Below are positions 15,450-62,646 of a DNA stretch of 64,000 nucleotides, one piece after another (the first letter of the stretch is position 1; the number at the start of each line of letters is the position of its first letter). The translations under genes and the position numbers were made by a program. The DNA comes from Lachnospiraceae bacterium. Its GTDB lineage: Bacteria > Bacillota > Clostridia > Lachnospirales > Lachnospiraceae. The notes under the pieces are model-generated. The model made no database searches, was not told the origin of the DNA, and worked only from the letters and a program-made list of their open reading frames with translations. The stretch is from positions 5,574 to 69,573 of the forward strand of contig JAZOTM010000003.1 in the NCBI GenBank assembly GCA_045657625.1, given 5' to 3'.

Positions 15450-15597
15450 AAAAAAGATTGTTGTTTTGCCCCGAGGCTTATGCTTTGGGGCTTGACGAAG
15501 AAATAAATTCGATTGTGTACAGTAAAATGATGAGTTTATTGTTTTGCCCCGAAAAAATAGTTTGGGGGCTAGAAATACCTAGGCCTCCCAGGGACAG
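15450..15597 (+). promoter_or_regulatory. CRISPR leader containing two palindromic GTTTTGCCCCGA...GGGGCT units
   Basis: Lies between the csm5 stop and the first repeat. TTGTTTTGCCCCGA occurs at 15461 and 15539, each followed by a complementary TTTGGGG(G)C. Confidence 0.6.
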
Positions 15598-16255: not shown

Positions 16256-16332
16256 GAACGCATAATACAATTAAAATAGTTTTGGCGGTTTTGGAAAGTG
16301 ATTTTGCAAGAACTGAGAAAGGGGATGTAAAA

Positions 16333-17334: not shown

Positions 17335-17339
17335 TTGTT

Positions 17340-17660: not shown

Positions 17661-17669
17661 GAGCATGTG

Positions 17670-43290: not shown

Positions 43291-43334
43291 AAAAAAAAGG
43301 CTTTTCTTCCGAATTGGAAGAAAAGCCTTTTTTT
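43291..43334. terminator. Bidirectional terminator between convergent genes
   Basis: AAGGCTTTTCTTCC-GAATT-GGAAGAAAAGCCTT, flanked by A8 and T6. Confidence 0.85.
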
Positions 43335-44985: not shown

Positions 44986-45181
44986 AATATTAACCTCACT
45001 ATATAAAAATTATAGCATTCTGTAAGGGTTTCAATTATTAAAGAAATCGAAAAATAGGGAAGTTTTTGGAAACTGTTTCATAAGAGAAAGTGTTGAAAAA
45101 AAGCGGTTTTTTGTATAAAATAGAGAACATATAGTGGCATACTATAGCACAAACTAGATTATAGGTTAGGGATACGTTTTT

Positions 45182-47833: not shown

Positions 47834-47846
47834 GGGAGATTTGAGA

Positions 47847-49142
47847 ATGAAAAAGCTTCGGGAAAAGAAAGGAAGAGATTTATACTGGGACAGATTAGAC
47901 AACACCGCAAATCTCTTCCCGGTGATTGCCGGGGAAACGCTGACAAACGTATATCGTATTTGTGTGACACTGACAGAAGATGTACAACCGAATTTACTAC
48001 AGGAAGCTCTTGATTTGGTATTACCCAAGTTCAAGGGCTTCAATTTGCGTCTACGTTTTGGTTTGTTTTGGTTTTACTTTGAAGAAAACGGAAAGGCTGC
48101 ACCGCGGGTGCACAAGGAAAATAATTATCCCTGTCGTTACATTCGAGAAAACCGTAACAACAACTATTTGTTCCGTGTGACTTATTACAAGAATCGCATT
48201 AATTTGGAGGTGTTCCATGCTTTGACAGATGGCATGGGCGGCTACAATTTTTTAACGGAATTGACTTATCAGTATTTGCGATTGTCTCATCCGAAATTAC
48301 GGAAAAAATATGGAGACGCCTTGTCTCCAAACACTTCCTTAAACCGTGAAGATAGCTTTTTGAAAAATTGTCCCAAGCGTAAAAAAGGAAAAGCCTATGG
48401 TTCCGGAAAGGCCTTTTTGATGAATGGAGAAAGACTTCCAAAAGGGGAGTTTGGCGTTATGCATGTGTATGTGCCTGTGGCAGAGATCAAAAAGACAGCC
48501 AAGAGTAAAGGCGCCAGCATCAATGACTTTTTGGTGGCGAATACGATTTATGCGATTTATATGGAGCAGTATCGAAATCGTAGAAAAAAAAGACCGATTC
48601 GAATTTCGGTACCTGTAAATTTACGCCCTTATTTTGAATCCATTACTACAAAAAACTTTTTTGTCATGGTTTCCATTGAGTTTGAACCTCAGAAAGAGGA
48701 ATACACGTTTGATGAGGTCTTGGAAATTACAAAAGAGGAAGTGCGAAAGAAAATTACGAAAGAGAATTTGGAAATCACGGTTTCCTACAATGTGGCAAAG
48801 GCGGAAAATATCATTGGAAAATTTGTTCCTTTGCCTTTGAAAAATATTGCTATGAATATTGTTTATCGTTTTATTGCAAGGGCCAATACCACTACGGTGA
48901 CCAACATTGGAGCTTTGAAGGTGGAAGAAGCATACGCACCGTACATTACGATGTTTCATGGTATTTTATCTGTATCCCAGGGGCAATTGTTGAAGGGAAC
49001 GATTTGCTCGTATGGAGATACCTTGGTATATACTTTTAGTACCCTGTATAAGGATACAGGAATAGAAAAGCGTTTTTGTAAAACCCTAGTGGAAGAGGGG
49101 ATTTCTGTAAGGGTGGAAAGCAATGGCGTTTTCCAATTGTAG
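47847..49142 (+). CDS. Condensation-domain-like acyltransferase (HxxxDG)
   Basis: FHALTDGMGG active-site motif. Starts 8-14 nt after the GGDEF-EAL stop (TTG 47841 or ATG 47847). Confidence 0.65.
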   Translation: MKKLREKKGRDLYWDRLDNTANLFPVIAGETLTNVYRICVTLTEDVQPNLLQEALDLVLPKFKGFNLRLRFGLFWFYFEENGKAAPRVHKENNYPCRYIRENRNNNYLFRVTYYKNRINLEVFHALTDGMGGYNFLTELTYQYLRLSHPKLRKKYGDALSPNTSLNREDSFLKNCPKRKKGKAYGSGKAFLMNGERLPKGEFGVMHVYVPVAEIKKTAKSKGASINDFLVANTIYAIYMEQYRNRRKKRPIRISVPVNLRPYFESITTKNFFVMVSIEFEPQKEEYTFDEVLEITKEEVRKKITKENLEITVSYNVAKAENIIGKFVPLPLKNIAMNIVYRFIARANTTTVTNIGALKVEEAYAPYITMFHGILSVSQGQLLKGTICSYGDTLVYTFSTLYKDTGIEKRFCKTLVEEGISVRVESNGVFQL

Positions 49143-49153
49143 AAATTGTATTT

Positions 49154-49187
49154 GTGTGACTGCGGTGTGACTAAGTCAACTTATACT
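49154..49187 (+). promoter_or_regulatory. Heptamer-repeat promoter P1
   Basis: GTGTGAC (49154), N4, GTGTGAC (49165), N10, TATACT (49182). No TTGACA-like -35. Confidence 0.65.
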
Positions 49188-49229
49188 TTGAATGAAAATC
49201 CAAAAGTATATTTTGGGGAGGAGACTTTA

Positions 49230-49925
49230 GTGAAGAAAAAAACAGTGATACTTGGGGCGTTGCTTGTGGCTGTGGTGGCTGTTTCAGTAGGTGCTACTTT
49301 GGCGGTGACTGTTCTGGGTGGTACAGAGGATACCGCGCAAGAAGCGGATATTCAAATAAATGATATTGGTATCGTATTTACAAATACAGGTACGGAAACC
49401 GTTGCACTTGGAACCGGCAAAATTGTTCCGGGAGACGAAGTGGAAGTGCATCAGAGTGTTGCCAACCAAGTAGATGGAGACGATGGATACGATATTTATT
49501 TAAAAGTAGAGATTGATAAGTATTGGAAAGACGAAGATGGCGACTATATGGAATTCGATTCCGATGTGGTGGCAGATCGTTTGTTTGTGGAGGTAGACGG
49601 CGTATCTACTGAGATTCCTTATTTGGAAGAAGGAGAGCAGACACAGCTTGGCAACTGGATTTTGACTGAGTCAGATATGGATCATGTGGTGATGTTTTAT
49701 ATCTATCCATTGCAGCAAGGCGAAGAAACAACTGAATTTATTAGTTCTATCTTGTTTGACGGTTCCATAGATAACAGTTTTTCGGGAATGTCTTACAGCA
49801 TTGAAGCTACCGGTACAGCAGTGCAGGCTACCAATGGAGAGGCAGCTGTTGCAGCGGAACTTGGTATGTTCTTGACGTTTGACGAGGATGGAACCATTCT
49901 TTCTATCAGTGAAAGCAAAGAATAA
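49230..49925 (+). CDS. TasA/camelysin-like secreted protein (paralogue 1)
   Basis: Preferred start is GTG 49230 (SD GGGGAGGAG). Signal is KKKTVILGALLVAVVAVSVGATLAV. PGDEV strand and C-terminal IEATGTAVQATN. The track's upstream ATG 49146 would lie inside promoter P1. Confidence 0.65.
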   Translation: MKKKTVILGALLVAVVAVSVGATLAVTVLGGTEDTAQEADIQINDIGIVFTNTGTETVALGTGKIVPGDEVEVHQSVANQVDGDDGYDIYLKVEIDKYWKDEDGDYMEFDSDVVADRLFVEVDGVSTEIPYLEEGEQTQLGNWILTESDMDHVVMFYIYPLQQGEETTEFISSILFDGSIDNSFSGMSYSIEATGTAVQATNGEAAVAAELGMFLTFDEDGTILSISESKE

Positions 49926-49953
49926 TGGGACCGGAATGAGAGGAGAGACGAGG

Positions 49954-50748
49954 ATGAGAAAAAAACTTGGGACATTTTTGTTGACTTGTTGTATGACCAT
50001 ATCTTTGCCTGCTTTGGTAAATGGAGATACCGTAGATTTGACTGTGGTAAACAACGACACTTCCATCACTTTTGATGGAGACCTTTCGGATGCCTTTTCC
50101 GGTATTATGCCGGGCGGTACGGAAACAGTTGTGATTTCCTTGACCAACAACGGTAGTCAAACTGGCAATTATTATATGACACAGTCCACATTAGAGACAT
50201 TGGAAGAGACAAGTAGCGGCTCCGGTGGAGCTTACGCTTATACCGTGACGGTGGGATCCAGTGAAGAGGATGCCACGGTTCTTTTAGATACCAGCACCGG
50301 TGGATATACAGAGGCGGATACAGCAAGCGGCACAGACCTTAGCTCTATTACAGAATTAAATGGTTATACGTATTTTGCTACGTTGGCACCGGGGGAAAGT
50401 ACCAACGTATATATGACATTGACTTTGGATGGGGAAGGATTTGATAGTGTCACAGACAATGATTATTCCAATTCTTCTGCAGCCATTTCCGTAAATTTCC
50501 GTGTACAGTTTGAAAGTGCACAGGGCGGTACTACCACAGTGGTGACGCGTTACGTAGAACAGACAGGAGCGAATACCTTTGTAAATACAATTTTGGAAGA
50601 AGTAATTCCATTGGCCGGAGGAGTACAGACCGGAGATCCGTTCTCCATAGGGGTGTTGGCCCTTCTTCTCGGCGGAGGTATTTTCTTGATTGTAATAGCT
50701 GTGAAAAAGCAGATGGGAGAGCAGACACATGAAGAAAAAATTTCCTAA
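49954..50748 (+). CDS. Secreted protein with C-terminal VQTG sorting signal
   Basis: Preferred start is ATG 49954. Has a Sec signal ...LPALVNG. C-terminus is PLAGGVQTGD + hydrophobic helix + KKQ (VQTG codons 50623..50634). Confidence 0.7.
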   Translation: MRKKLGTFLLTCCMTISLPALVNGDTVDLTVVNNDTSITFDGDLSDAFSGIMPGGTETVVISLTNNGSQTGNYYMTQSTLETLEETSSGSGGAYAYTVTVGSSEEDATVLLDTSTGGYTEADTASGTDLSSITELNGYTYFATLAPGESTNVYMTLTLDGEGFDSVTDNDYSNSSAAISVNFRVQFESAQGGTTTVVTRYVEQTGANTFVNTILEEVIPLAGGVQTGDPFSIGVLALLLGGGIFLIVIAVKKQMGEQTHEEKIS

Positions 50749-51700
50749 AATCCTTTTGTTTGTCTTTTCATTAAGTATCTTTTTCTTTGTCCTGCCTATA
50801 AGCGTTTGGGCGGAGGAAACTTATACCATTACGTTTCGCGCAGGGAATGCCCGTACTTTTGATGTAGAGACACTTGCGTTCGAAGCTTATGAAAACGTGG
50901 AAGTCAATGAGAACTACGTCAAGATTCAAGTGGAGGTAAAAAAAGGTACTACCATCGGAGATGCGTTGGGACTCACCAATGAAGAACTAACAGCGGTAAT
51001 TCAAAGTGCACTTTCTGAGGATGGCAATGAGACCTATGCATTACGGACTTTAACGTGTGCAGATACAGAACTGATTAAGAACACCGATGTGGTATTGGAT
51101 TATAGTCGTATTGTAAATCCGGTTTCCTATTCCATTTCTTATGTGGATGCTACCGGGAATGCTATTTATCCATCAGTAATGGCCTATGGAAGTGAAGGCG
51201 AAGAGATTACAGCTTCCCCGCTCACGATTGCTTATTACGAGACAGAGGATACCGAAAAGACCATTGTATTGACAGCAGGAGAAACCAATGCCATTGTCTT
51301 TACTTATACATACACCGGAACGATTTCAAATACGGAGATTACCAATTTGATTCCGATTTATATTCCGGGGACGACGACTTATACTACGACGGTGAATACG
51401 GTTATACAGGATGCCGGGACGACGGTGACCAATGTGGCCGGTGGTGGAGCAGCGAATGCGCAAGCAGGAGCCGATGTAGATGATGAAGAAGAGGAAATTT
51501 CGGATGAAGAAACTCCGTTAGGCGGAGATGGTGAAGGACTTTTGAGTAATATTCTAGGCGAAGAAACACCTCTTGCAGCGCTGGTAGAAGGAAACAGTGT
51601 TTTGGTTCCGGCGGTGATAGGAGTGGTGGCAGCCTTGGTTGTGGTAGGCTTATTCTTTATTCAGAAGAAAAAAAGCAAATATGTTCAAGAATCTAAATAA
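50729..51700 (+). CDS. Surface protein with MucBP-like repeat and C-terminal TM anchor
   Basis: Signal peptide ...ISVWAEE. YSISYVDATGNAIY...IVFTYTY beta-rich module. T-rich linker. EETPLG / EETPLAA motifs, then TM + KKKSK. Confidence 0.65.
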   Translation: MKKKFPKILLFVFSLSIFFFVLPISVWAEETYTITFRAGNARTFDVETLAFEAYENVEVNENYVKIQVEVKKGTTIGDALGLTNEELTAVIQSALSEDGNETYALRTLTCADTELIKNTDVVLDYSRIVNPVSYSISYVDATGNAIYPSVMAYGSEGEEITASPLTIAYYETEDTEKTIVLTAGETNAIVFTYTYTGTISNTEITNLIPIYIPGTTTYTTTVNTVIQDAGTTVTNVAGGGAANAQAGADVDDEEEEISDEETPLGGDGEGLLSNILGEETPLAALVEGNSVLVPAVIGVVAALVVVGLFFIQKKKSKYVQESK

Positions 51701-51806
51701 TTTATTAAACATCCGTTTTTTACTGGAAAAACGGATGTTTTTTTGTTACAAAAAAACTAATTATGATATAGTAGTAGGGGTTGAGAGAGAGAAACGGGGA
51801 GCATAA

Positions 51807-53003
51807 ATGATTGTTCATACATTGGGAAAGTTTCAAATAATTGAAAAGGAAGCAGTTGTGACAGATGATAGTTTGAACTCGGCGATGATGATGAAACTGT
51901 TTGTTTTTTTGATTTTGCATCGAGATCAAGATGTCAGTGTGGAAGAATTAGCGGCTGCCTTATGGCCGGGGGACGAATCGGATAGTCCTGCGGGAGCTCT
52001 AAAAAATTTAACGTATCGTTTGCGAACGACGTTAAAAAAGAATTTTGGGGAATCCACTTATATTTTATCGAATCGAGGTTCTTATCGTTGGAATCCGGAG
52101 ATTCCGTTAACGGTGGATGTAGAAGAATTTGAGGAGTACTTGAAAGCGGCTCGGGAAAAAGAGGACATGGAGGAGATTATTCATGATTATGAAGAAGCCA
52201 TGTTGCTGTTTAAAGGAGACTTCATGAGCTGTATTCAAGATACACATTGGGCTGTTACTTTAAATACTTACTATCATGGACAGTTTTTACAATTGACCAA
52301 GGATTTAGAGGATTTATATCTCGAACAGGAAGATTATGTTCGTATGGAGCAGCTGGCTGGCGAGGCTCTCAAATTAGACAATCTGGATGAGGATTTGTAT
52401 TACTATTTAACCTTAGCCAAGATGAAACAAGGGCAATACCGTCAAGCACTGGAAGTTTATGAAACAGGATGTCGTATTCTGGAGGTAGAACTTGGAGTGA
52501 AACGTCCAAGACGATTGAATGAATTATACGGGGAGCTGCTAAAGGTGAATAAAACCAAGCAGGAAGAAGATATTATACAGGTGCAGACGGATATGCAGGA
52601 AGAAGAACCGGAAGGTGCTTTTTTTTGCGGATACCCGGTTTTTCGGGAAATATATCGATTGGAAGCTAGAAAAATATTACGCAGCGGGGAGTCAGAGCAT
52701 GTGTTGCTTTTGACGTTGCGTACTGTGGAAGCACCTACGGAAAAGGCGCGACAGTATCGTATAAAAAAAGGCATGGAACTTTTAAAAACGATTTTGGGAA
52801 CTAGTCTTCGTGTAGGGGATGTGGCTGCAGAATATAGCGATTCACAATATGTGATTTTGCTTCCGACCTGTACATATGAGGGGGGCATGATTGTGGCGGA
52901 TCGAATTATCTCACGTTTTCAAGAACTATCTAAGCAAAAGGAGAGCGTTCAGATTTTGCCGAGTTTAGTGGAAGTTGGGTTAGCGAAAGATATATTGGAA
53001 TAG
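51807..53003 (+). CDS. SARP/BTAD transcriptional activator fused to a degenerate GGDEF domain
   Basis: wHTH (VSVEELAAALWP, LTYRLRTTL), BTAD (AMLLFKGDF..., ALEVYETGCRILEVELGVKRPRRLNELYGELL). C-terminal RVGDVAAEYSDSQYVILLP aligns to RxxD-x5-GGDEF-VILLP. Confidence 0.8.
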   Translation: MIVHTLGKFQIIEKEAVVTDDSLNSAMMMKLFVFLILHRDQDVSVEELAAALWPGDESDSPAGALKNLTYRLRTTLKKNFGESTYILSNRGSYRWNPEIPLTVDVEEFEEYLKAAREKEDMEEIIHDYEEAMLLFKGDFMSCIQDTHWAVTLNTYYHGQFLQLTKDLEDLYLEQEDYVRMEQLAGEALKLDNLDEDLYYYLTLAKMKQGQYRQALEVYETGCRILEVELGVKRPRRLNELYGELLKVNKTKQEEDIIQVQTDMQEEEPEGAFFCGYPVFREIYRLEARKILRSGESEHVLLLTLRTVEAPTEKARQYRIKKGMELLKTILGTSLRVGDVAAEYSDSQYVILLPTCTYEGGMIVADRIISRFQELSKQKESVQILPSLVEVGLAKDILE

Positions 53004-53012
53004 TTAGGAGAC

Positions 53013-53441
53013 ATGCGTATGGAACAACAGTATCCCAAAAATGGATTTCGTGTATGTGTGGACAAAGTGGAGAACGACGTAGAGGGCAGAATTTATTCTC
53101 CGTTGTTTAAGGACAAAAAACCTTTTTCCTCTTTTGCAGAAGTGATTTTAGTTATGGATAATGTTTTCGATGCAACGGGATATCCTCATGCATTTCAAGA
53201 AAGTAGAAGTTTTGTGGAACGTCGGGGCACAAAGCCTTATCAACCGAAGAAACAGGAAGAGATTCCAAGACGCAGAGTAGAAGATCAAAAAGGAAAAGTG
53301 TATACGGTTGATATTGTAGTATTAGAACGGCGCGGCAGTAGTTGGCAAGGTGTTGCGAGAAATACGAATACCGGGGAAGAAAAAGAATTTCATAGTGAGA
53401 TGGAACTGTTTGAAATGGTTCGAAAAGAATTAGATCAGTAA
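53013..53441 (+). CDS. Small protein with two copies of a beta-beta-WQG-helix module
   Basis: Coupled 9 nt after the regulator. Its C-terminal half resembles the 59358..59585 product. Confidence 0.6.
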   Translation: MRMEQQYPKNGFRVCVDKVENDVEGRIYSPLFKDKKPFSSFAEVILVMDNVFDATGYPHAFQESRSFVERRGTKPYQPKKQEEIPRRRVEDQKGKVYTVDIVVLERRGSSWQGVARNTNTGEEKEFHSEMELFEMVRKELDQ

Positions 53442-53469
53442 AGGATGCTTTTTGGCATCCTTTTTTTTA
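53442..53469 (+). terminator. Intrinsic terminator
   Basis: AGGATGC-TTTTTG-GCATCCT followed by T8. Confidence 0.8.
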
Positions 53470-53478
53470 CTTTTTTCT

Positions 53479-53512
53479 GTGTGACCGACGTGTGACTTGA
53501 GATTGGTATAGT
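53479..53512 (+). promoter_or_regulatory. Heptamer-repeat promoter P2
   Basis: GTGTGAC (53479), N4, GTGTGAC (53490), N10, TATAGT (53507). Confidence 0.65.
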
Positions 53513-53589
53513 GGAACACATATAAAGGGAAGTTTGTGAAAGAGTTGTAATAACGAGTACCCTCGAGTTGGATGGAGGAAAAGAGGAAC

Positions 53590-56500
53590 ATGAGGAGAGT
53601 TTGGAAATCGATTCTGGCAACCGGTCTGATTGCAAGCATGAGCTTAGGCGAATTATCGACTGTTTACGCCTCAGAAACCCAAGAATCAATAGATACGAGC
53701 ATATATATGGAGTCTCAGGAAAGCACTGAGACTTCTTCTGATGTTGTAATAGATGCCGATACGACAGAAAGCACTGAGGTGGCTGCAGAGTCCACGGAAG
53801 GCACAAGCGAAGCAACCACAGCTACAACTAAAGCTACAGAGGATATTGCTGATGCCACAGAAGAGACATCTGCAGAAGTAAGGGAAGCAGAGTTGTCCTT
53901 TACTTCGAATGTTGCATCTGATGGCGTGACAGTTACTATTTCCGGTCCGGAAAGTGCATTTCCTTCTGCAGCACTTACGGTTGCTCTTGAAGTAAAAGAA
54001 GACGACGATTACATTGAAGAAGTTGTTTCTGCGTCAGATGTTTCCATTGCAGACTATGTGGCATATGACATTACACTACTGGTGGATGGCGTAGAAGTAG
54101 AACCCCTTGGAGAGGTGTCTGTTGTTTTTTCTGCAAATACATTAGGAGATGCTTCCGCAGAAGTTTATCATGTAAACGAAGAAACAAATACTTTGGATGC
54201 TGTGACAGAGACCAGCGTTACAGAAGATTCCATTTCCATGACTACGGATCATTTTTCTACCTATTTGGTTGGAGCTAGCGATACCAGATGGGGAGTACAA
54301 ACAACTTATGGGTATATTCAAACGGATAAAGATCCGAAGAATGGTGACTATAGTATTGTAGGAGAAATCTATTATAATGGGCAAAAAATAGATAGCTCTG
54401 ATGAAAAAATATTTAAATCCAAGACCCATAAATTTACTGCAGTTGCAGCGGAAGGTTATACTTTAGAAAAAGTAACCTATTATTATACTTATGCATATTA
54501 TTATGATAATTGGAGTAATGGTCAAACGGAAGAAAAGGTTTGGGACTGCTCCCAAAGTTTTACTATGGAGTATAAATATAATTCATGGGAATATGATGAG
54601 GGAAAAAATGACTATAGAGGATATTTTGTTTTACATGTCAGAGCTTATTTTGTAGATAAAACGAAAAGTGTAGATGTCGCTTTTACTACCAAAAACAGCA
54701 TGACAGAAAATGTGATTCAGGGGGTATCCTTTTCTTTAGCTGGAGAAGATGGCACTACATATACAGCAACCTCCGATTCTTCCGGAGATGTGTCATTTTC
54801 AGGTATTCCGCTAGGAACTTACACCTTAACAGAAAATCAGTTGATGGGTTATGAAACACCAAATCACACCTGGACAGTAACTGTGACAGAAACAGATACT
54901 TATACCATTGTCAGCGACAGTACGGAAGAAGCGGACTTGGAAGGCAGCTACAGTGAAGGTTATGTAGTATGGATTACACCACAGACAGAACCGGTGGTTT
55001 CTACAGATAAAGATACGGATCTTTATGATTGGGATAATCGTATTTATCAAGTGAAACTTGAAGGCAGTGCGATGCAGCAGGTGGTAGAGACAGCCTCAGA
55101 ACCGGTAAATGTGGTTCTGGTTTTGGATATGTCAGGGTCCATGCTATTTCCGAATGATTTAACAAATGAAACAACCATGTATATCTGGAACTTGGACACA
55201 TCTAAAACTTACTATTATATTGTTGAAGATGAGGCAGGTACTGTTTACACCGTACAGTATCGTACGGAAAGCGGTGTCAGTGGATGGTATTACAAGGATT
55301 CCTCTTATGTTTACGCAAATTCTGGGCAAAGTTGGACCTTGATTACTGACAAGTCTTCTGTACTAAATTACTACAAATCTTATAAGTTTTATACATCTCC
55401 TTCCGTGGGGGCCAGTATTCGTTTACAGGACACAAAGGCTGCAGCAGAATCTTTTATAAAAACTTTGGCAGAAGCAAATGAAAAGAATCAAGTAGCAATT
55501 GTAACTTTTGCAAAAAGTACTTCATCAAAAACAGAAATTGTTTGTGGTTTAACTGAATTAAGCGAGAGTAATGTGGAAACATTATTAAGTGAGATAGAGG
55601 GATTATCAACAGATGGCGGTACCAATCAGTATGCAGGACTTGAACTTGCAAATTCAATTTTAACATCGAACACGGAATCGGCAACTGATCATTCAGCAAT
55701 TGTATTGATTTCTGACGGTACCATTAATGAAAATGTAGAAGATTCCTATAAAGAAACACAAATCAGCACAGCACAGTCATTAGCAACGGTTTACACCGTT
55801 GGTATTGATATTAATGTGAATGCTACGGTGAAAGAAAAAGCGTCTACTTTGTTAAAAGAAATCGCTACGGATGAAAATCGATTCTATGAGGTTGGTTCAG
55901 ATGCTTTACATGCAATCTTATCAAGTATTGCAGTGGATATTCTTGGAAGTATTCCGTTGACAGCGACGGTTGTAGATTATATCGATGAACGGTTTCAGTT
56001 GGTGGATACTTCAGGAAATGCGCTGAGTGTAGGAGATACAATTTCAGCAAGACAAGTGACGGATGGTAAGATTGTTACCATTAACGGTACCATTGGTGAA
56101 GATGAAAATGGCGTATATGTAAAATGGGAAAGCGATGGCTTAAATGGTTTTATTGCTGAATTTTATGTGCAGGCCAAGGAGGATTTCCTAGGTGGCTATG
56201 TGGTAAAAACCAACGAGCTTGTTTCGAATATTACTGCCACATCTACAGAGGGAGAAATTGTCAGTGAAACTTTTCCGGTACCAACTGTAAATGTGAAACT
56301 CCTGGATTTGAGTATGGGGGATTTAAGTGAGACTCTTTTTCTGGGAGATGAGATTTCTTCCGGTGAGTTTGCAGAGGCATTGAATGAAACCATTCTTTTT
56401 AATGAAACAAATGGAAGCTTACAATTAACAGTGGCACAGATTGCCACCTTAATGGAAACAGGAACGGTGGAAGTTCCATATTCCTATGGTGACACCAATG

Positions 56501-57297
56501 ATGCGGTAGGTACTTTGACTTATACCTTGACTTGTTCCGGAGATACCGCTTCTTTGGAAAATCATACAGCCACAGTGGTTGGAGATAATGTGGAGACCTA
56601 TACCTTAAAGGTGAGTTATACACCATATACCTTAGAAGCAAGAAAAAATACGGCAACAACTGCAGGGTATGTGGTACCAAACAGCAGTTTTAATGGCCAC
56701 ACATTGAAAACTTCCAAAGAAACTTCAGGAAAGTATGTGATTTCTGTAGTAGCAGGAACCATTACCATTACAAAAACAATTTCCAAAGAGGACTATAAGG
56801 AAATTAAGGGAGATCCAATTTTTACCTTCCAAATCAAAAACACGACTACCGGAGATGTATATTATAAAACTCTTCGATTTACCAGTGGGGTGGAAGAGAC
56901 AAATGGAAATTATACTTTGTCTGTTGTGCTTACGGATATGAAGAGAGGCATCTATGAGGTTACGGAGCTTTCAACTATGCGGTTTACTTTAGATGAAGTG
57001 ACGATTTCTTCCAGCCAAAAGCAATTACCATCCAAGAGTATGGAAAACGGATATTGTTTTGCTATTGGATATTCTTCTACGGCTGCTGACACAGCATTAG
57101 AAACCCTTGCTTATAAGGATGCAACCATTTCTTTTGTAAACAGTATGGAAGTAGAAAACTATTTCTCAGATACGGACGTGGTGGTAAATACTTATCGGGT
57201 ATCTGATGGAAAAGTAATTTCCGGTGCAGAGGTACAGGATCGTTTAAATGGTTCTGCTAAGATTTACAGTGCTGCAGATTTCACAACAGTGGAGTAA
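53590..57297 (+). CDS. Large secreted vWA-domain / Cna-B-like adhesin without a recognisable anchor
   Basis: Signal peptide RRVWKSILATGLIASMSLG...VYASE. MIDAS DMSGS (55126..55140). Cna-B-like GTYTLTENQLMGYETPNHTWTVTVTE. The alternative start is ATG 53572. Confidence 0.8.
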   Translation: MRRVWKSILATGLIASMSLGELSTVYASETQESIDTSIYMESQESTETSSDVVIDADTTESTEVAAESTEGTSEATTATTKATEDIADATEETSAEVREAELSFTSNVASDGVTVTISGPESAFPSAALTVALEVKEDDDYIEEVVSASDVSIADYVAYDITLLVDGVEVEPLGEVSVVFSANTLGDASAEVYHVNEETNTLDAVTETSVTEDSISMTTDHFSTYLVGASDTRWGVQTTYGYIQTDKDPKNGDYSIVGEIYYNGQKIDSSDEKIFKSKTHKFTAVAAEGYTLEKVTYYYTYAYYYDNWSNGQTEEKVWDCSQSFTMEYKYNSWEYDEGKNDYRGYFVLHVRAYFVDKTKSVDVAFTTKNSMTENVIQGVSFSLAGEDGTTYTATSDSSGDVSFSGIPLGTYTLTENQLMGYETPNHTWTVTVTETDTYTIVSDSTEEADLEGSYSEGYVVWITPQTEPVVSTDKDTDLYDWDNRIYQVKLEGSAMQQVVETASEPVNVVLVLDMSGSMLFPNDLTNETTMYIWNLDTSKTYYYIVEDEAGTVYTVQYRTESGVSGWYYKDSSYVYANSGQSWTLITDKSSVLNYYKSYKFYTSPSVGASIRLQDTKAAAESFIKTLAEANEKNQVAIVTFAKSTSSKTEIVCGLTELSESNVETLLSEIEGLSTDGGTNQYAGLELANSILTSNTESATDHSAIVLISDGTINENVEDSYKETQISTAQSLATVYTVGIDINVNATVKEKASTLLKEIATDENRFYEVGSDALHAILSSIAVDILGSIPLTATVVDYIDERFQLVDTSGNALSVGDTISARQVTDGKIVTINGTIGEDENGVYVKWESDGLNGFIAEFYVQAKEDFLGGYVVKTNELVSNITATSTEGEIVSETFPVPTVNVKLLDLSMGDLSETLFLGDEISSGEFAEALNETILFNETNGSLQLTVAQIATLMETGTVEVPYSYGDTNDAVGTLTYTLTCSGDTASLENHTATVVGDNVETYTLKVSYTPYTLEARKNTATTAGYVVPNSSFNGHTLKTSKETSGKYVISVVAGTITITKTISKEDYKEIKGDPIFTFQIKNTTTGDVYYKTLRFTSGVEETNGNYTLSVVLTDMKRGIYEVTELSTMRFTLDEVTISSSQKQLPSKSMENGYCFAIGYSSTAADTALETLAYKDATISFVNSMEVENYFSDTDVVVNTYRVSDGKVISGAEVQDRLNGSAKIYSAADFTTVE

Positions 57298-57309
57298 GGG
57301 AGAGGGAAA

Positions 57310-57915
57310 ATGAAAATAAAGTGGAATAGAATAACAAAAAAAACAGCCCTCCTAATTGTAGCAGTGGTTGGAATATTGACAGTGGGAGTGGGAAGTACCT
57401 ATGCAGTGGTTTTATCCCATACTGCAAATACAGTGACGAATACTTTTACCATTGGCTCCGTGGAGACGGAGATTTATGAAGATACCTCTTCCTACGGGAC
57501 CAAAACCGTACAGGTGGTAAATACCGGAGATAGCCCCTGCTTGATTCGCGTGAGAGTCCATGTATCACCGGAAGATGCAGGCGTGACCATTACCGGGTGG
57601 GATACGGAACACTGGTCTACTTTACAGGAGGACGGTTACTATTATTATTTAGGAGTCCTGTCTGATAAAGGAGAAAATGCTACTTATTATGCTACACCGG
57701 CATTGTTTACCGGTTACACTGTAGCAGGTGTTGATGAAAATGGAAATGTGGAAGATGGAACGACTGTTCCGGATTTTTCCATTACGGTTTATCAGGAAAG
57801 CATTCAATACGAAGCGACCAATGAAGTCGGAGAAACCCTAACAGTCTATGATGAAAATGGGAACTTTTCTTTGGCGCAGGCCAAAGAGTTGTATGCCCTA
57901 TATGAAAGTAAGTAA
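57310..57915 (+). CDS. TasA/BsaA-like protein with SipW-type signal peptide (paralogue 2)
   Basis: ...LLIVAVVGILTVGVGSTYAVVLSHTANTVTNTFTIGSVETEIYED. C-terminal FSITVYQESIQYEA. Confidence 0.75.
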   Translation: MKIKWNRITKKTALLIVAVVGILTVGVGSTYAVVLSHTANTVTNTFTIGSVETEIYEDTSSYGTKTVQVVNTGDSPCLIRVRVHVSPEDAGVTITGWDTEHWSTLQEDGYYYYLGVLSDKGENATYYATPALFTGYTVAGVDENGNVEDGTTVPDFSITVYQESIQYEATNEVGETLTVYDENGNFSLAQAKELYALYESK

Positions 57916-57937
57916 GAGAAAGTGAAAAGGAAGTATT

Positions 57938-58450
57938 ATGATTCAGAAGATATGTAATGTGTTATCTACAATGATTTTAATAGTTTTATTACTGATGGCA
58001 GCGGCTTTGTTTGTGCCGAAACTTCTGGGGATGAACGAGTATGCAGTGTTGACCGGAAGTATGGAACCTACCATTTCCGTTGGATCTTTGGTGTATGACT
58101 GGGAATTCGAGGAGACTGAATTAGAAGTTGGTGATATTGTGACCTATCAGATTTCCGAAGGAACCTTGGTGACGCATCGAGTAGTGGAAATCAATGAAGA
58201 AGAGGCAACAGTTATTACCCAGGGAGATGCCAATAATGCAGAAGATGCAAATCCGGTACCTTTTGAAAATATTGTAGGGGTATGTACTTTTCATATACCG
58301 GCCTTGGGATATATTTCTATTTACATGAGAACCGGTTTGGGGATTGGCGTGATTTGCGGAATTGTTGTAGTGATTTTGTTATTAAACTATTTACCGGACC
58401 TGCTTTCAAAAGAGAGTAAGAAAGCTGTTACTGAAAAAGAAGAAATTTAG
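57938..58450 (+). CDS. sipW: Signal peptidase I, SipW (archaeal/ER) type
   Basis: N-terminal TM, LTGSMEPTISVGSLV (catalytic Ser), VTHRVVEI (His), C-terminal TM. Confidence 0.85.
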   Translation: MIQKICNVLSTMILIVLLLMAAALFVPKLLGMNEYAVLTGSMEPTISVGSLVYDWEFEETELEVGDIVTYQISEGTLVTHRVVEINEEEATVITQGDANNAEDANPVPFENIVGVCTFHIPALGYISIYMRTGLGIGVICGIVVVILLLNYLPDLLSKESKKAVTEKEEI

Positions 58451-58454
58451 AATT

Positions 58455-58488
58455 ATATGACCATGGTGTGACCAAGGCTTGTTACAAT
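58455..58488 (+). promoter_or_regulatory. Heptamer-repeat promoter P3
   Basis: ATATGAC (58455), N4, GTGTGAC (58466), N10, TACAAT (58483). Confidence 0.55.
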
Positions 58489-58534
58489 CGGTCTATAGAA
58501 TAAAACAAATTTATTTTTTAAGGAGAGTATTCAG

Positions 58535-59191
58535 ATGAAAAACAAGAAATTAGTTGTAACTTTAGGCGCTGTAGCATTGATCGCTGCAATTGGGGTAGGC
58601 AGTACTTTTGCATATTTGACAGCTACCACAGACACTGTTACCAATACTTTCACAATTGGTGAAGTGACTTTCACAACTCCGGATCCAGATCCAAATGATC
58701 CAGATTCCAGCATCAATTCCGGACTTGTAGAATCTGCTGTAGAAAGAGATGAGACCGGTGCATATGTAGATGCTGACGGAGATGATACATGGACTGTTAC
58801 CGGAAATGATTATACAGATGTATTACCTGGCGAAGTGATTTACAAAGATCCTACCGTTCTTGGTTTGACAGAGGATTCTGTTGATGCATATGTATTTGTT
58901 ACCGTTGCAGGCGAAGATGAAAGCCTTAGTGTAACAGAATATTCTAGCGAATGGACAGAATTAGGTAAAACTGACGATGGAAAGACTGTATTATATCGTG
59001 TATATGACAGTGCTGATGCAAAAAAAACTCCATCTACTATTTTCAGTTCTGTAACAGTTTCTACTGATGCAGATGAAGATACTGAGTTTACAGATATTGT
59101 AATTAATGCATATGCAATTCAGATGGCAGGCTTTGATTCACCAGAAGCTGCATTCGCTCAGTTTTCTGAACAGGCAGGAACATTAAAATAA
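58535..59191 (+). CDS. TasA/BsaA-like protein with SipW-type signal peptide (paralogue 3, own promoter)
   Basis: MKNKKLVVTLGAVALIAAIGVGSTFAYLTATTDTVTNTFTIGEV. C-terminal FTDIVINAYAIQMAGF. SD AAGGAGAG. Confidence 0.8.
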   Translation: MKNKKLVVTLGAVALIAAIGVGSTFAYLTATTDTVTNTFTIGEVTFTTPDPDPNDPDSSINSGLVESAVERDETGAYVDADGDDTWTVTGNDYTDVLPGEVIYKDPTVLGLTEDSVDAYVFVTVAGEDESLSVTEYSSEWTELGKTDDGKTVLYRVYDSADAKKTPSTIFSSVTVSTDADEDTEFTDIVINAYAIQMAGFDSPEAAFAQFSEQAGTLK

Positions 59192-59357
59192 ACTGAAAAA
59201 ATAAATACTTTTCAGAAAACAATATTTTTGGTATAATTATATGGAATATGTGAAATGAATTTGCTTTATAAAAGGATTTTCAATGGAAGTGTAAGGATAC
59301 CGGACGATGGAAGTCGTCTCGAAGGGCCGTTTTAGCGGAACGGTCGAAAGGAGCAAG

Positions 59358-59585
59358 ATGAAAAAAACGTCATTAGGCAACAGCCAAAACTTTGTAGTTA
59401 CAGTGCGTAGCCAAGAGAATCATACTTGGCAGGGAACCGTTTCCTGGGTAGAAGGGAAACAGCAGTCAAATTTCCGAAGCGTTTTGGAATTGTTGCATTT
59501 GATGGACTCTGCAATTACTCCGGAGGAGGAAGATGTAGAAGACTTGATGAATGATTCGAAGACGATGGAAGAAGTAGAAAAGTAA
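59358..59585 (+). CDS. Small protein, single beta-beta-WQG-helix module
   Basis: Preferred start is ATG 59358 (SD AAAGGAG). Sequence QNFVVTVRSQENHTWQGTVSWVEGKQQSNFRSVLELLHLMDSAI. Confidence 0.6.
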   Translation: MKKTSLGNSQNFVVTVRSQENHTWQGTVSWVEGKQQSNFRSVLELLHLMDSAITPEEEDVEDLMNDSKTMEEVEK

Positions 59586-59592
59586 TCAAGAC

Positions 59593-59629
59593 GGATGGAT
59601 TTGAGAAGACTCAAATCCATCCTTTTTTT
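59593..59629 (+). terminator. Intrinsic terminator
   Basis: GGATGGATTTGA-GAAGAC-TCAAATCCATCC followed by T7. Confidence 0.85.
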
Positions 59630-59761
59630 ATATCATAGGAAATTCCATTCCTATGATATAAAAAAGCGCTCCGCTATGGAAGCGCACGCGCGCGAGATGT
59701 AAATGTTGCATAAATGCAACCGCGCCTGGCGCGAGAATGTCGCATGCGACATTCTTTCTTG
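59625..59761 (+). repeat. 137-bp multi-hairpin repeat, family 2, copy 2
   Basis: Matches 32808..32944 with 2 substitutions (G>A, T>C). Same orientation, and again abuts the T-run of a terminator. Confidence 0.9.
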
Positions 59762-59887
59762 CGTCATAGGAAGGTTTGACCTAAAAATACTTTTGGATTT
59801 TTTATGATATAAATTCTTAATTATGATAGACTAAGGGTAGTTGTTTTGACAGAAAAGGAAAGTTGGCAGGACATAAAGGACAGTGAC

Positions 59888-60628
59888 ATGAAGAAAAAGA
59901 AGGGAAATGCACTTTTATTTCTAGGAGTGCTATTGGTTTTGGCCGGATTAGGATATCTTGGTTATATGTTTTACAGTTATAAAAAAGCAGAGGATGCTTT
60001 CGCTGAAATTGCGGATACTTACGTAGAGCAGCAAGAAGAGGAGACACAGTGGTGGGAGACATTATCCATTGACTTTGAAGGCCTGAAAGAACGAAATCCC
60101 GACGTAATTGGATGGATTTATATGCCGGGAAATGAATACATCAATTATCCTATTTTACAAGGAGAAGATGATGATACCTATTTGCGAAGGGATTTGGATG
60201 GCAATGCTTCTTCCAGTGGATCGATTTTTATGGAGACATTAAATGCCAGTGATTTTTCAGATTATCATACCATTTTGTATGGGCATAATATGAGAAATAA
60301 ATCCATGTTTGGGTCATTGAAATTATTCAAAGACGAATCTTATTATGAAGAGCATAGTATCTTCTATATTTACACGGAGAATGCGGCGTATTGCTACACC
60401 ATCTTTTCTTATCATGATGTGCCGGAGGATAGTTCTATTTATACTATTGGGTTCCAACCGGGTGAAATCTATGAAGCCTTTTTGGAAGAACTGCTTCGTG
60501 CATCCTATTATGATTGTGGTGTGGAAGTAAACGAGGAAGATCAAGTGGTGACATTATCGACCTGTTCTGCTACCGGGTATCGTTTTGTGGTACATGGTGT
60601 TTTGACGGAAATCCATGTATATGAATAA
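59888..60628 (+). CDS. srtB: Class B sortase
   Basis: N-terminal TM, DVIGWIYMPGNEYINYPILQG, ILYGHNM (His), TLSTCS (Cys), RFVVHG (Arg). Preferred start is ATG 59888; the track ORF starts at TTG 59846. Confidence 0.85.
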   Translation: MKKKKGNALLFLGVLLVLAGLGYLGYMFYSYKKAEDAFAEIADTYVEQQEEETQWWETLSIDFEGLKERNPDVIGWIYMPGNEYINYPILQGEDDDTYLRRDLDGNASSSGSIFMETLNASDFSDYHTILYGHNMRNKSMFGSLKLFKDESYYEEHSIFYIYTENAAYCYTIFSYHDVPEDSSIYTIGFQPGEIYEAFLEELLRASYYDCGVEVNEEDQVVTLSTCSATGYRFVVHGVLTEIHVYE

Positions 60629-60645
60629 GAAATTGGAGTTATAAA

Positions 60646-61311
60646 ATGAGTTATTGTAAGAATTGTAAAGTAGAAATCGGTGATCAGACCAGTGTTTGTC
60701 CTTTGTGCCAAAATGTTATGGAGGAAGGACCTAAAGTAGAAAATATGTATCCGGATATTCGCCAATTAGAAAAGAAAGTGGCGCTGGCATCTCGAATTTA
60801 TATTTTCCTTGCTATTTTAACAGAGGCAATTCTGGTTCATATAAATGCGACACTTACTCCGCAAATATGGTGGAGTGCCATTGTGGGTGGTGCCTTTTTG
60901 TTGATATATATTGGATTGAAACTGTTGATTGAGTATGAGTATACATATCGCAGCCGTATTTTTCTATTAACCATTGCAGGAACGGCTTATTTGGTTTTGA
61001 TTGACTATGTCGTTGGATTTTATGGCTGGTCTTTGGAATTTTGTTTGCCATCCTTTATTTTGGCGATTGATGTAGTGATTGCATTTTTGATGATTTTTAA
61101 TCGTAGAAATTGGCAAAGCTATATGACTTGGCAATTGGTGATGCTGGGTTGGAGCTTTTTAAATATGTTGTTGATTTATATTGTGCATGGACATATTTAT
61201 TTCATGGTGTATATTGCGGGAGCGATTACTTTTTTCTTTTTCCTTGGAACGTTTATCATTGGGGGAAAGAGATCTGCGGCAGAAATGAAACGTCGCTTTC
61301 ATATTGATTAA
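60646..61311 (+). CDS. Zinc-ribbon membrane protein, unknown function
   Basis: CKNCK..x..CPLCQ followed by 5 TM helices. Confidence 0.6.
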   Translation: MSYCKNCKVEIGDQTSVCPLCQNVMEEGPKVENMYPDIRQLEKKVALASRIYIFLAILTEAILVHINATLTPQIWWSAIVGGAFLLIYIGLKLLIEYEYTYRSRIFLLTIAGTAYLVLIDYVVGFYGWSLEFCLPSFILAIDVVIAFLMIFNRRNWQSYMTWQLVMLGWSFLNMLLIYIVHGHIYFMVYIAGAITFFFFLGTFIIGGKRSAAEMKRRFHID

Positions 61312-61413
61312 GAGAAATATGCAGAGAATTAGGATGATGTGTTGATTTATAATTGACGGAGTACGCTAAGGTGCGAGAATGCCACAAAGGGCATTCTTGC
61401 TTTAGCAGTGAAA

Positions 61414-62646
61414 TTATTTATGCATAAGATGAGGAACCTCTAAAAATGCGGGGGTTCCTTTTTTATAGGCAACTTCCGGTTCGCCTTGAATCAACGGCTC
61501 CATATAAGTAAAGAGTGCATCTGTGATATCGCAATGGTTTTCTGCAATCCAAGAAAGCGGAACTTTTTTCTCTTGGTTGGCGATGTCGCCAATTGGAGCG
61601 TAGGAATAAGATACTTGATAAGGGGCATCGGAAGTACGATTGATGGTAACCATGATGCCGGTTTTTCCTTCCTGGGCAAAAAGGGTTGCTTGTTTTCCTT
61701 CTTCAAAGGATTCCTCTAAATCTGTTTTCGATGTCAAGTGAGCTGCAGCACGCTGCAATACATTGATTTCTACAGAACGAACTTTTATGGAAAAGTGTTC
61801 TTTTACCAAATATTCTAAGGTTTTTCCGGTGCCGGACAATTGATTATGGCCGAAAGCATCGGCGGTGTCTGTAGCGGAAATATAGTTGCCTTTTTCATCA
61901 CGTACCCCTTCAGAAACTGCAATGATGACATTGCGATGTTCTTTTTGGGCGTTTTTGATATCTTCTATAAATTGTTCTGTTTGGAAGGGAGCTTCCGGAA
62001 GGTAAATTAAATGGGGAGCACCCATACCGTTTGCTCTTGCTAAAGCAGAGGCAGCGGTTAACCAACCGGCATCGCGGCCCATGATTTCCACGATGGTAAT
62101 ACTTGGAACCGGATAAATATATGCGTCATAGGCGATTTCCTGCAAAGTGGTTGCGATGTACTTTGCTGCGGAACCATATCCTGGTGTATGATCGGTGCAA
62201 ACCAAGTCATTATCAATGGTTTTTGGAATTCCAATAAATTGAATAGGGCTGTTGATATGCGCTCCATACTGCGACAATTTCAAAACGGTGTCCATGGAGT
62301 CATTGCCTCCAATGTAGAAAAAGGCCTGTACTTCTTTCTCTTCTAAAAATTGAAAAATTTGTTCGTAAATTTCAGGGGTTTCTTCGTAAGATTTTAGTCG
62401 ATATCGGCAAGAACCAAGATACATAGCGGGGGTAGTCATTAAGCGAGAAACCGCATCCCCATTGTTTTGAAATAAGTCACTTAAAGAAATAAGATTATGA
62501 TTTAAAATGCCTTCAATTCCGTGAACGGAACCGTAGATCTCGTCGAAAAACGAGGACTCTAAAATGCCGGAAATGACACCGGCTAAACTGGCATTGATGG
62601 CGGCTGTCGGACCGCCGGATTGTGCGACAATACAATTCTTTTTCAT
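61414..62646 (-). CDS. pfk: 6-phosphofructokinase (ATP- or PPi-dependent, long type)
   Basis: AQSGGPTAAINAS, GGNDS, IPKTIDNDL and MGRDAGW motifs. Confidence 0.85.
   Translation of the reverse strand: MKKNCIVAQSGGPTAAINASLAGVISGILESSFFDEIYGSVHGIEGILNHNLISLSDLFQNNGDAVSRLMTTPAMYLGSCRYRLKSYEETPEIYEQIFQFLEEKEVQAFFYIGGNDSMDTVLKLSQYGAHINSPIQFIGIPKTIDNDLVCTDHTPGYGSAAKYIATTLQEIAYDAYIYPVPSITIVEIMGRDAGWLTAASALARANGMGAPHLIYLPEAPFQTEQFIEDIKNAQKEHRNVIIAVSEGVRDEKGNYISATDTADAFGHNQLSGTGKTLEYLVKEHFSIKVRSVEINVLQRAAAHLTSKTDLEESFEEGKQATLFAQEGKTGIMVTINRTSDAPYQVSYSYAPIGDIANQEKKVPLSWIAENHCDITDALFTYMEPLIQGEPEVAYKKGTPAFLEVPHLMHK

Follow-up and report, generated by a model that had tools for sequence, protein, structure and literature searches.

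In biofilms of Bacillus and Clostridium, the main protein scaffold is formed by TasA-type fibres, and both how they are attached to the cell and how they are supplied with an adhesive tip are unsettled questions. In B. subtilis they are encoded by the tapA-sipW-tasA operon, in which TapA is a strand-complementing accessory of the TasA fibre (PMC10151520). The corresponding C. perfringens operon reads sipW-bsaA-bsaB-bsaC-bsaR-bsaS-bsaD, with srtB adjoining, and BsaC is a secreted, soluble vWA protein (PMC7395162, PMC11580942). BsaA requires SipW and forms SDS-resistant polymers, and BsaB is absent from the long oligomers (PMC7395162). According to Kivimaki et al. (PMC11580942), BsaA polymerises by donor-strand exchange together with an N35-K74 isopeptide bond for which E56 is the catalyst, and a BsaB-like protein with an LPXTG motif occurs in most C. 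perfringens strains. Here we describe a locus of 12–13 closely spaced genes, all on the + strand, between 49.1 and 61.3 kb of a 64,000-nucleotide stretch of Lachnospiraceae bacterium DNA (assembly GCA_045657625.1, contig JAZOTM010000003.1, positions 5,574 to 69,573; this whole stretch is referred to as the window). With a probability of roughly 0.55, we read the locus as encoding a SipW-dependent, heteropolymeric TasA/BsaA-type fibre with a TasA-like base anchored by the class B sortase SrtB, a giant vWA protein attached through the TasA-like subunit T2, and a SARP-type activator.

Similar clusters are known from C. perfringens and from two further descriptions. PMC11580942 (Fig. 9C) and a preprint (bioRxiv 10.64898/2026.01.04.697558) describe loci of the TasA superfamily in which LPXTG anchors and sortases accompany SpaA-domain or tip proteins, a signal peptidase and cyclic di-GMP (c-di-GMP) enzymes. 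The AbpX-like loci of the preprint comprise SLH or LPXTG anchors, minor subunits, predicted tip proteins and c-di-GMP enzymes, and AlphaFold3 was used there to model donor-strand complementation between an LPXTG anchor and a fibre subunit of C. amylolyticum. Two claims of a preliminary description of the present locus therefore have to be withdrawn: that known SipW systems are simple operons, which the srtB gene, vWA protein BsaC and regulators of the C. perfringens bsa locus contradict, and that a hybrid of TasA-type and sortase-type assembly was uncharacterised, since TasA-superfamily loci with anchors and sortases already appear in both sources. A wall-anchored TasA fibre is thus a bioinformatic proposal in this literature, and none is known to have been demonstrated by experiment. 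What stands of the earlier overall interpretation is a composite, co-conserved and separately regulated locus; its status as an unrecognised hybrid does not.

The window locus has the gene content of the C. perfringens bsa type, namely sipW, at least two TasA-like genes, a vWA gene and an adjacent srtB. Both loci encode a dedicated SipW, several TasA-like paralogues (the major BsaA and the accessory BsaB in C. perfringens) and a secreted protein with a vWA domain (BsaC in C. perfringens); a class B sortase gene lies beside each of them, and each has a dedicated regulator. The Asn/Glu/Lys pattern of the candidate major subunit here may correspond to the isopeptide 'lock' of BsaA, and the BsaB-like protein of most C. 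perfringens strains has a sorting motif, as does one protein here. In contrast, the two-component system BsaR/S of C. perfringens is replaced here by a SARP-like activator whose GGDEF-like domain is degenerate. At about twice the size of BsaC, the vWA protein includes a SpaA domain and ends in a Cna-B-like module that is conserved, and there are four subunit classes with fixed pairings of giant and T2 and of T1 and sorted protein. The sorting motif is VxTGD rather than LPXTG, the subunits score below the BsaA cut-off, and genes for a MucBP-like membrane-anchored protein and for WQG proteins are additional. With the B. subtilis tapA-sipW-tasA operon the locus shares the donor-strand-exchange beta-sandwich superfamily and, as predicted here, SipW-dependent export and an accessory, paralogue-like factor for the nucleation or attachment of fibres, whereas the B. 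subtilis operon lacks a sortase, a subunit with a sorting signal, a vWA giant and the donor-strand Asn, and is regulated by SinR/SlrR rather than by a SARP-type activator. The AbpX-like loci follow a like overall plan, put forward on the basis of genome neighbourhoods and AlphaFold3, with a major subunit and minor ones, a dedicated signal peptidase, second-messenger genes nearby, a predicted tip protein and a wall anchor paired with the fibre through donor-strand complementation, but they belong to different subfamilies and the AbpX signal peptidase has 10 transmembrane segments. In a non-exhaustive comparison with passages of these AbpX and TasA-superfamily accounts, the VxTGD family, the pairing of giant and T2, and the TGTGAC operator were not found. 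We regard as distinctive here the combination of a VxTGD anchor and a class B sortase, the fixed pairings within a set of four subunit classes, the C-terminal domain shared by the giants, the SARP-type operator, and the uncharacterised WQG and membrane-anchored proteins.

Every gene listed in the preliminary description was found, on the + strand and where it had been placed. Three encode the proteins likened there to TasA: T1 (49230–49925, 231 residues), T2 (57310–57915, 201 residues) and T3 (58535–59191, 218 residues), with sipW (57938–58450, 170 residues) lying between T2 upstream and T3 downstream. In the 128,000 residues of the six-frame translation of the window, the SipW-type signal VG[SA]T[FYL]A is confined to three places, the N-termini of T1, T2 and T3; the pattern proposed earlier, G-x-G-[SA]-T-[FYL]-A, does not fit T1, which reads VG-A-T-L-A. 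T3 also passes the hidden Markov model (HMM) of the SipW signal, TIGR04088 (23.1 bits, cut-off 19), whereas T1 and T2 were not detected by it. T1 matches the BsaA-family model TIGR04090 with an E-value of 1.4e-5, below the cut-off (25 bits against 60).

Families of T1, T2, T3 and the sorted protein, made up of homologues gathered from metagenomes and GTDB genomes, were compared by hhalign. The T3 family aligned with the T2 family at a probability of 99.8, with the T1 family at 99.4 and, through its N-terminal 76 residues, with B. subtilis TasA at 94.6 (the TasA query was confirmed to be identical to PDB 8AUR). Among the 22 members of the T3 family, 19 matched TIGR04088, 15 matched TIGR04090, 12 matched Peptidase_M73 and 2 matched the TasA model. 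The membership of T1–T3 in the TasA/BsaA/camelysin superfamily is therefore supported by a good link at the family and profile level, which is the sense in which the TasA-like nature claimed for them holds.

The alignments also suggest how two of the subunits may be locked. In the T3 family, N37 of the donor strand and K104 are invariant and E50 is near-invariant; in the T2 family, N44 and E57 are invariant and a Lys aligns with that of T3. In both families the Asn lies in the donor strand (TNTF), the Glu in the next strand and the Lys after a PG motif. The donor-strand Asn is missing in T1 and in the sorted protein, and TasA has Ala at this position. Going by residue order alone, the Asn-Glu-Lys set of T2 and T3 may be equivalent to the BsaA lock triad N35/E56/K74. 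An AlphaFold2 model of T2 (predicted local distance difference test, pLDDT, 76) is a beta-sandwich in which the first 20–25 mature residues are disordered, as would be expected of a donor strand. The Foldseek matches of this model were generic Ig/Caf1-like ones only (E ≥ 0.02) and were rejected. When PDB sequences were searched with profiles of the four families (T1, T2, T3 and the sorted protein), TasA did not come up and all matches were at chance level.

SipW is an ER/archaeal-type signal peptidase I that scores 106.4 bits against TIGR02228 (cut-off 51.85) and carries the GSMEP (S41), THR (H80) and GDAN motifs, so that it looks catalytically active; with the Bacillus-specific SipW equivalog model NF046067 it stays below the cut-off (95 against 190).

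The gene downstream of T1 (49954–50748) encodes the sorted protein (264 residues), which has an ordinary signal peptide. At its C-terminus GVQTGD, which contains the VQTG noted previously, leads into a hydrophobic helix and a KK tail. This is the only sorting signal in the window, and in the homologues V-x-T-G-D is invariant, with a membrane helix and a basic tail after it. A word-indexed homologue search with the sorted protein alone returned only the query; the relatives came from a profile query. An exhaustive profile search gave 1093 representative clusters (50% identity) at E ≤ 1e-3 and 697 at E ≤ 1e-10, and the cluster to which the sorted protein of three related metagenome contigs belongs has 1505 member sequences in metagenomes. 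Among the best 150 members, about 125 carry [VPAI]-x-T-G-D, most commonly as VKTGD (57), followed by VQTGD (17), VRTGD (10) and PKTGD (8). No Pfam family covers these proteins, and the Gram_pos_anchor model matches 7 of 111 members.

The preliminary description overlooked that this protein is itself TasA-like as judged by profile and model comparison. A 111-sequence profile of the family aligned with the T1 family at a probability of 96.2 over 109 columns and with the T3 family at 95.5, and its N-terminal strand aligns with the donor strand of the TasA-like subunits. When a structural model of the sorted protein was compared with 350,000 PDB chains by Foldseek, the top three matches were the TasA entries 8AUR, 5OF1 and 5OF2 (probability 0.96–0.98, E 3.5e-3 to 2e-2), with TM-scores of 0.3–0.4 and from a model of low confidence (pLDDT 55). 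The sorted protein is most probably a fourth, divergent TasA-like paralogue with an ordinary signal peptide at one end and a wall-sorting signal at the other, and it thereby offers a concrete candidate for the link between TasA-type and sortase-type assembly. One member from a related contig (P0030, L017:9552-10610) contains an internal duplication with a second GVRTGD in mid-protein and has 352 residues against 267 in close relatives; a recent tandem duplication or an artefact of the assembly may account for this.

The class B sortase gene was also located where it had been reported (59846–60628, 260 residues). SrtB scores 188.1 bits with TIGR03064 (cut-off 153.75), and H147, TLSTC (C240) and R246 are intact. 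The tripartite signal encoded nearby predicts that the GVQTGD protein is its cognate substrate, and SrtB homologues are present in 7 of 9 related loci that encode a sorted protein. The characterised C. difficile SrtB (PMC4155245) is comparable in being a clostridial class B enzyme: x-[P/V]-x-T-G is common to its (S/P)PxTG motif and the motif here, and PKTGD occurs within the sorted-protein family. Unlike here, its substrates are unrelated adhesins and hydrolases rather than TasA-like proteins.

The giant (53572–57297) has an ordinary signal peptide, an acidic Ser/Thr-rich linker, a SpaA/Cna-B-like domain that is SpaA prealbumin-like, a vWA domain and a C-terminal Cna-B-like domain. The VWA, VWA_2 and SpaA matches agree with the preliminary description; the length of 1236 residues given there counts from the second Met, and the first ATG gives 1241. 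VWA_2 scores 49.5 against a cut-off of 27, and the metal-ion-dependent adhesion site (MIDAS) is complete (D519-x-S521-x-S523, T684, D715). The giant has neither an anchor nor a YPK pilin motif. The giants of 11 related loci, otherwise different in their domains (VWA, DUF5979, Flg_new), end in the same C-terminal domain of about 170 residues. K1068, E1132 and N1206 are invariant in this domain and fit a Cna-B-type intramolecular isopeptide bond. A 'VVNTY' strand in it was considered as a TNTFT-like donor strand and rejected, the three residues fitting the intramolecular Cna-B triad.

Related loci (given L-numbers) were found in Bacillota, namely in Lachnotalea, Acetatifactor, Thomasclavelia and metagenome contigs, and at least five lineages besides that of the window have the complete gene set, often with its order unchanged. 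The metagenome contigs L015-L017, with about 40% identity, carry T1, a VRTGD protein, the membrane protein, the SARP gene, a VWA giant, T2, SipW, T3 and SrtB in the order of the window. In L018-L020 (G+C content 0.52–0.58) one array comprises giant, T2, SipW, T3, T3, SipW, T1, a GVQTGD protein, the membrane protein and SrtB, and L001 has the same array from T2 on, its contig beginning at T2 so that the giant is cut off. The structural genes are present in L005 (Lachnotalea sp. AF33-28), and L008 (an Acetatifactor metagenome-assembled genome) encodes T2, T1, an AVKTGD protein, the membrane protein and SipW. The genes are thus co-conserved, as the preliminary description had required, with the full set in the same order in L015-L017 and permuted in L001 and L018-L020. 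Wherever a T2 homologue is encoded, it comes after a giant, whatever the other domains of the giant; T1, the sorted protein and the membrane-anchored protein follow each other in strict order across loci. Because of these fixed pairings, T2 may be an adaptor for the giant and T1 an adaptor for the anchor.

Two side observations concern these relatives. The loci of L005 (10530-14041), L001 and L018-L020 each hold a pair of sipW paralogues along with two or three genes of the T3 type, and the module appears to expand by duplicating pairs of SipW and subunit. The TasA-type module of L008 adjoins what has the look of a classical LPETG pilus operon: immediately upstream of it (308-7026) lie genes for two proteins of about 900 residues that end in LPETGG and a membrane helix, and one gene for a sortase that, read by eye from its N-terminus, is class C-like.

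Three strong terminator-like hairpins on the + strand divide the locus into four putative transcription units. The first hairpin (51707–51740, 15 pairs and a T run) closes the unit of T1, the sorted protein and the membrane-anchored protein; the second (53440–53463) lies 3' of WQG1, which follows the regulator gene; the third (59593–59622, 13 pairs and a T run) closes the unit of giant, T2, SipW, T3 and WQG2. SrtB and the DUF6320 gene would form the fourth.

The regulator gene (51807–53003) encodes a SARP-like protein of 398 residues with a winged helix, a BTAD domain (E 1.3e-17) and a degenerate GGDEF-like C-terminal domain. Its Trans_reg_C score of 23.3 bits is below the cut-off of 26.2, and four of four homologues match this model (best E 5.4e-7). 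At the C-terminus, GGDEF stays below threshold in the window protein and in all four homologues (best E 0.0023–0.014); SDSQY stands in place of GGDEF, and an RxxD-like RVGD is kept, with R335, G337 and D338 invariant. The winged helix and BTAD domain bear out the SARP half of the name SARP-GGDEF given to this regulator in the preliminary description, whereas identity of the C-terminus with GGDEF was rejected on the sub-threshold HMM scores and a negative hhalign comparison, and we call it 'degenerate, GGDEF-like' only.

Direct repeats that resemble an operator precede three of the genes. Upstream of T1, TGTGAC-N5-TGTGAC (49155–49171) is followed after 10 nt by TATACT (49182–49187); upstream of the giant gene, the same repeat and spacing lead to TATAGT (53480–53512); and a weaker version, TATGAC-N5-TGTGAC with TACAAT after 10 nt (58456–58488), lies at an internal promoter upstream of T3. 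These are the three matches to the motif at no more than two mismatches in the window, against 0.23 expected, and all are intergenic and on the + strand. With sites before fibre genes counted at no more than one mismatch, equivalent sites are present in four other lineages, on the same strand: in L005 before T1, giant and T3, in L015-L017 before T1 and T3, in L006 before the SARP gene and in L009 before the giant. L005 and L015-L017 carry the weaker TATGAC variant at the same place, before T3. The 10-nt spacing to the −10 hexamer is constant at the three window sites and at the sites in L005, L006, L009 and L015-L017. Winged-helix activators of the OmpR/PhoB type, SARPs among them, act on promoters in which direct repeats, spaced by one turn of the helix, take the place of the −35 box, and the 11-bp spacing of the repeats beside a −10 box at the three window promoters fits this architecture. 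We infer the pairing of this regulator with the TGTGAC operator: most likely, the locus-encoded SARP-like protein activates the three putative operator promoters, and a dedicated regulator, as suggested earlier, is plausible.

Regulation seems to have been swapped between lineages. The higher-GC clade (L001, L018-L020) is without the TGTGAC operator; a gene for an ECF-type (extracytoplasmic function) sigma factor flanks the locus in L001 (7250-7774) and L020 (11008-11532), and a gene for a divergent BTAD regulator does so in L019 (1-977). The gene upstream of the operator in L009 was considered as a SARP homologue and rejected.

Two genes for c-di-GMP enzymes lie directly upstream of the locus (43333–44985 and 45182–47833). 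The second, on the + strand, encodes a PAS-GGDEF-EAL protein that we treat as context rather than as part of the core, and in L015-L017 a GGDEF-EAL gene lies upstream of the locus as well. The retained RxxD motif and the nearby GGDEF/EAL genes suggest that c-di-GMP may be an input to regulation, which is plausible but unproven. A permissive riboswitch scan of 44800–61600 gave a chance snoRNA match alone, and a c-di-GMP riboswitch was ruled out as the regulator.

From the gene content, homologies, motifs, co-conservation and operator conservation computed here, we infer how the products might act together. T1, T2 and T3 would be exported through their SipW-type signals, and cleavage by SipW would expose an N-terminal donor strand, predicted to be TNTFTIG in T2 and T3. 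T3, which is preceded by an internal promoter and has its Asn, Glu and Lys arranged in the order seen in the BsaA triad, is the probable major subunit; it would polymerise through donor-strand exchange, and, as in C. perfringens BsaA, an isopeptide bond between Asn and Lys might lock the polymer. SrtB would cut the sorted protein at [GA]-V-x-T-G-D and join it to peptidoglycan, making it the covalent base of the fibre, and T1 would probably be the adaptor at this base, because it is always encoded beside the sorted protein. T2, always encoded directly after the giant, would for that reason probably couple the giant to the fibre through the conserved C-terminal Cna-B-like domain of the giant, whose vWA domain with its complete MIDAS would serve as adhesin. 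The SARP-like regulator would activate the T1, giant and T3 promoters through the TGTGAC repeats in place of a −35 box, with c-di-GMP as a possible input through the degenerate GGDEF-like domain. The vWA tip and sortase-attached base envisaged in the preliminary description would correspond to the two ends of such a fibre.

Several results weigh against this fibre model. T1, T2 and T3 match no Pfam family, Peptidase_M73 included, and none exceeds the curated cut-offs for TasA (NF046066), BsaA or camelysin; TasA is not among the top 50 PDB matches of the T2 model in Foldseek, and the TasA matches of the sorted protein have the low model confidence and TM-scores given above. Neither a donor strand nor a TasA-like domain can be recognised in the giant, and its K/E/N set fits a bond inside the giant. 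As to anchoring, C. difficile SrtB left an NVQTG peptide uncleaved in vitro (PMC4155245), and deletion of srtB in C. perfringens left BsaA polymers and the pellicle unchanged (PMC7395162). L005 has no SrtB homologue within 10 kb of the locus (about 20 kb fetched), and none was found in L008, where the only sortase gene is differently built and stands beside the two LPETG proteins. On the side of regulation, L005 and L009 have the operator and no SARP gene in the fetched 20 kb, the hhalign comparison of the regulator C-terminus with a true GGDEF domain was negative, and the whole window contains no riboswitch at Rfam gathering thresholds.

Some of these points would be accommodated if the locus encoded two co-regulated but physically separate modules, a possibility that we rate at about one in four: T2 and T3 would form a released matrix of the BsaA type, accompanied by a soluble vWA protein, on the pattern of C. 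perfringens strain 13, and the SrtB-anchored protein, T1 and the membrane-anchored protein would stay on the cell outside the polymer, as surface receptors or non-covalent holders of the matrix. The normal polymers of the C. perfringens srtB mutant, the position of BsaB outside the long oligomers and the soluble, secreted state of BsaC all agree with such a division, as does L005, without an SrtB homologue near its locus. The two sets are also distinct transcription units here, with the terminator-like hairpin at 51707–51740 between them; in L001 and L018-L020, however, they are fused into one uninterrupted gene array, and in the window they share the same operator. Moreover, the sorted protein, which would have to be outside the polymer, is itself TasA-like, with an N-terminal strand aligning with the donor strand. 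These three findings speak against separate modules.

A sortase-polymerised pilus, modelled on the S. pyogenes FCT and S. pneumoniae PI-2 pili, is improbable. In those pili a class B-type sortase acts together with SipA/LepA, the tip adhesin is often a vWA or Cna-B protein, every subunit has a sorting signal, the sortase forms the bonds between subunits and SipA is catalytically inactive. Applied to the present locus, SrtB would be the pilin polymerase, the signal-peptidase homologue an assembly factor, and the Thr of VxTGD would be joined to a Lys of the giant or of a subunit. The predicted surface fibre does resemble these pili in its wall-linked base, class B-type sortase and signal-peptidase-family gene, the last two standing together with genes for Cna-B/SpaA-domain proteins, and conserved lysines are available in T2, T3 and the giant. 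In contrast to a pilus in which all pilins are sorted, carry a pilin-motif Lys and are joined by a class C sortase, there is a single sorting signal in the locus and in the whole window, the giant lacks YPK and the sortase is of class B. SipW keeps its catalytic Ser/His motifs, scores above the cut-off of an active-enzyme family and thus looks active, unlike SipA, and the TasA-like subunits T1–T3 bear SipW-cognate signals instead of sorting signals.

That the TasA-like proteins are monomeric, secreted camelysin-type 'peptidases' or spore/coat-associated proteins, processed by ordinary signal peptidase and clustered without meaning for assembly, is very improbable: the Pfam family that their relatives match is named Peptidase_M73, and polymerisation at this locus is predicted from sequence rather than directly evidenced, but a dedicated SipW accompanies a cognate signal motif on exactly T1, T2 and T3, the AlphaFold2 model has the disordered N-terminal strand that a donor strand would show, synteny is strict across lineages, and the camelysin protease label is regarded as a likely misidentification in PMC11580942.

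We conclude that the window contains a real gene cluster, conserved in several gut Firmicutes, whose products most likely build a TasA/BsaA-type fibre with a sortase-anchored base and a giant adhesin. More tentatively, and with less confidence than in the fibre itself, the locus may be the founding case of a distinct and widespread class of Gram-positive surface fibre with four specialised paralogues, namely a shaft subunit with an isopeptide lock, a tip adaptor for interchangeable giants with a common C-terminal docking domain, a base adaptor and a TasA-like [VP]-x-T-G-D anchor that SrtB would fix covalently to peptidoglycan, and with a switch made of a SARP and a c-di-GMP-sensing degenerate GGDEF domain. 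If so, donor-strand (non-covalent) assembly and sortase anchoring would be combined in one organelle, a combination shown by no tested system; C. perfringens strain 13 has lost the anchor, and srtB is without phenotype there. Loci of this type, whose subunit classes are clear and whose sorting motif and operator are defined, provide a clean genetic system for asking whether the tether still missing between TasA-type fibres and the cell wall is a TasA-like subunit anchored by a sortase. Given that the anchor family is widespread (about 1,100 clusters), they could be relevant to adhesion and aggregation in gut Firmicutes, and the VxTGD/SrtB pair and the possible Asn-Lys lock could be used as protein-ligation tools.

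The remaining genes of the locus have less certain roles. The membrane-anchored protein (50729–51700, 323 residues) is a secreted protein that has a conserved YxVTFRAGN domain, a MucBP-like segment and DEETPLA repeats and ends in a membrane helix and a basic tail. It had been described as a MucBP-like anchored protein; the helix agrees with this, whereas the MucBP match is sub-threshold (21.9 bits, cut-off 23). A role as a second sortase substrate was ruled out, the family having no conserved xTG motif.

The two small WQG proteins announced earlier are present as WQG1 (53013–53441, 142 residues) and WQG2 (59307–59585, 92 residues). They share a core in which W-Q-G...F is invariant, with the family consensus TFxIxI..Q..SWQG..xWV......FRSxLELI; further members are found at L005:4043-4522, L005:12571-12861, L006:4252-4905 and L008:7075-7323. 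They have no match in Pfam or NCBIfam. The longer form has an additional N-terminal domain. The L006 copy lies directly 3' of a SARP gene, WQG1 is apparently co-transcribed with the regulator, and the WQG proteins may be regulatory. The last gene (60646–61311), directly downstream of srtB, encodes a membrane protein of 221 residues with an N-terminal zinc ribbon (DUF6320, PF19845, E 2e-45); because it has no counterpart in the related loci, it is probably not part of the fibre system.

Outside the locus, a gene for a 433-residue protein (47841–49142) begins 8 bp after the PAS-GGDEF-EAL gene and stops just short of the T1 operator. Its product contains an HxxxDG-like motif (HALTDGMGG) and matches the WS/DGAT acyltransferase model TIGR02946 weakly (E 2e-7, far below the cut-off). 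A low-GC stretch of the window (GC 0.33–0.36) holds a type III-A CRISPR-Cas set (9209–18989) comprising Cas6, an HD-domain Cas10/Csm1, three RAMP/Csm proteins, Cas1 and a Csm6 (CARF-HEPN).

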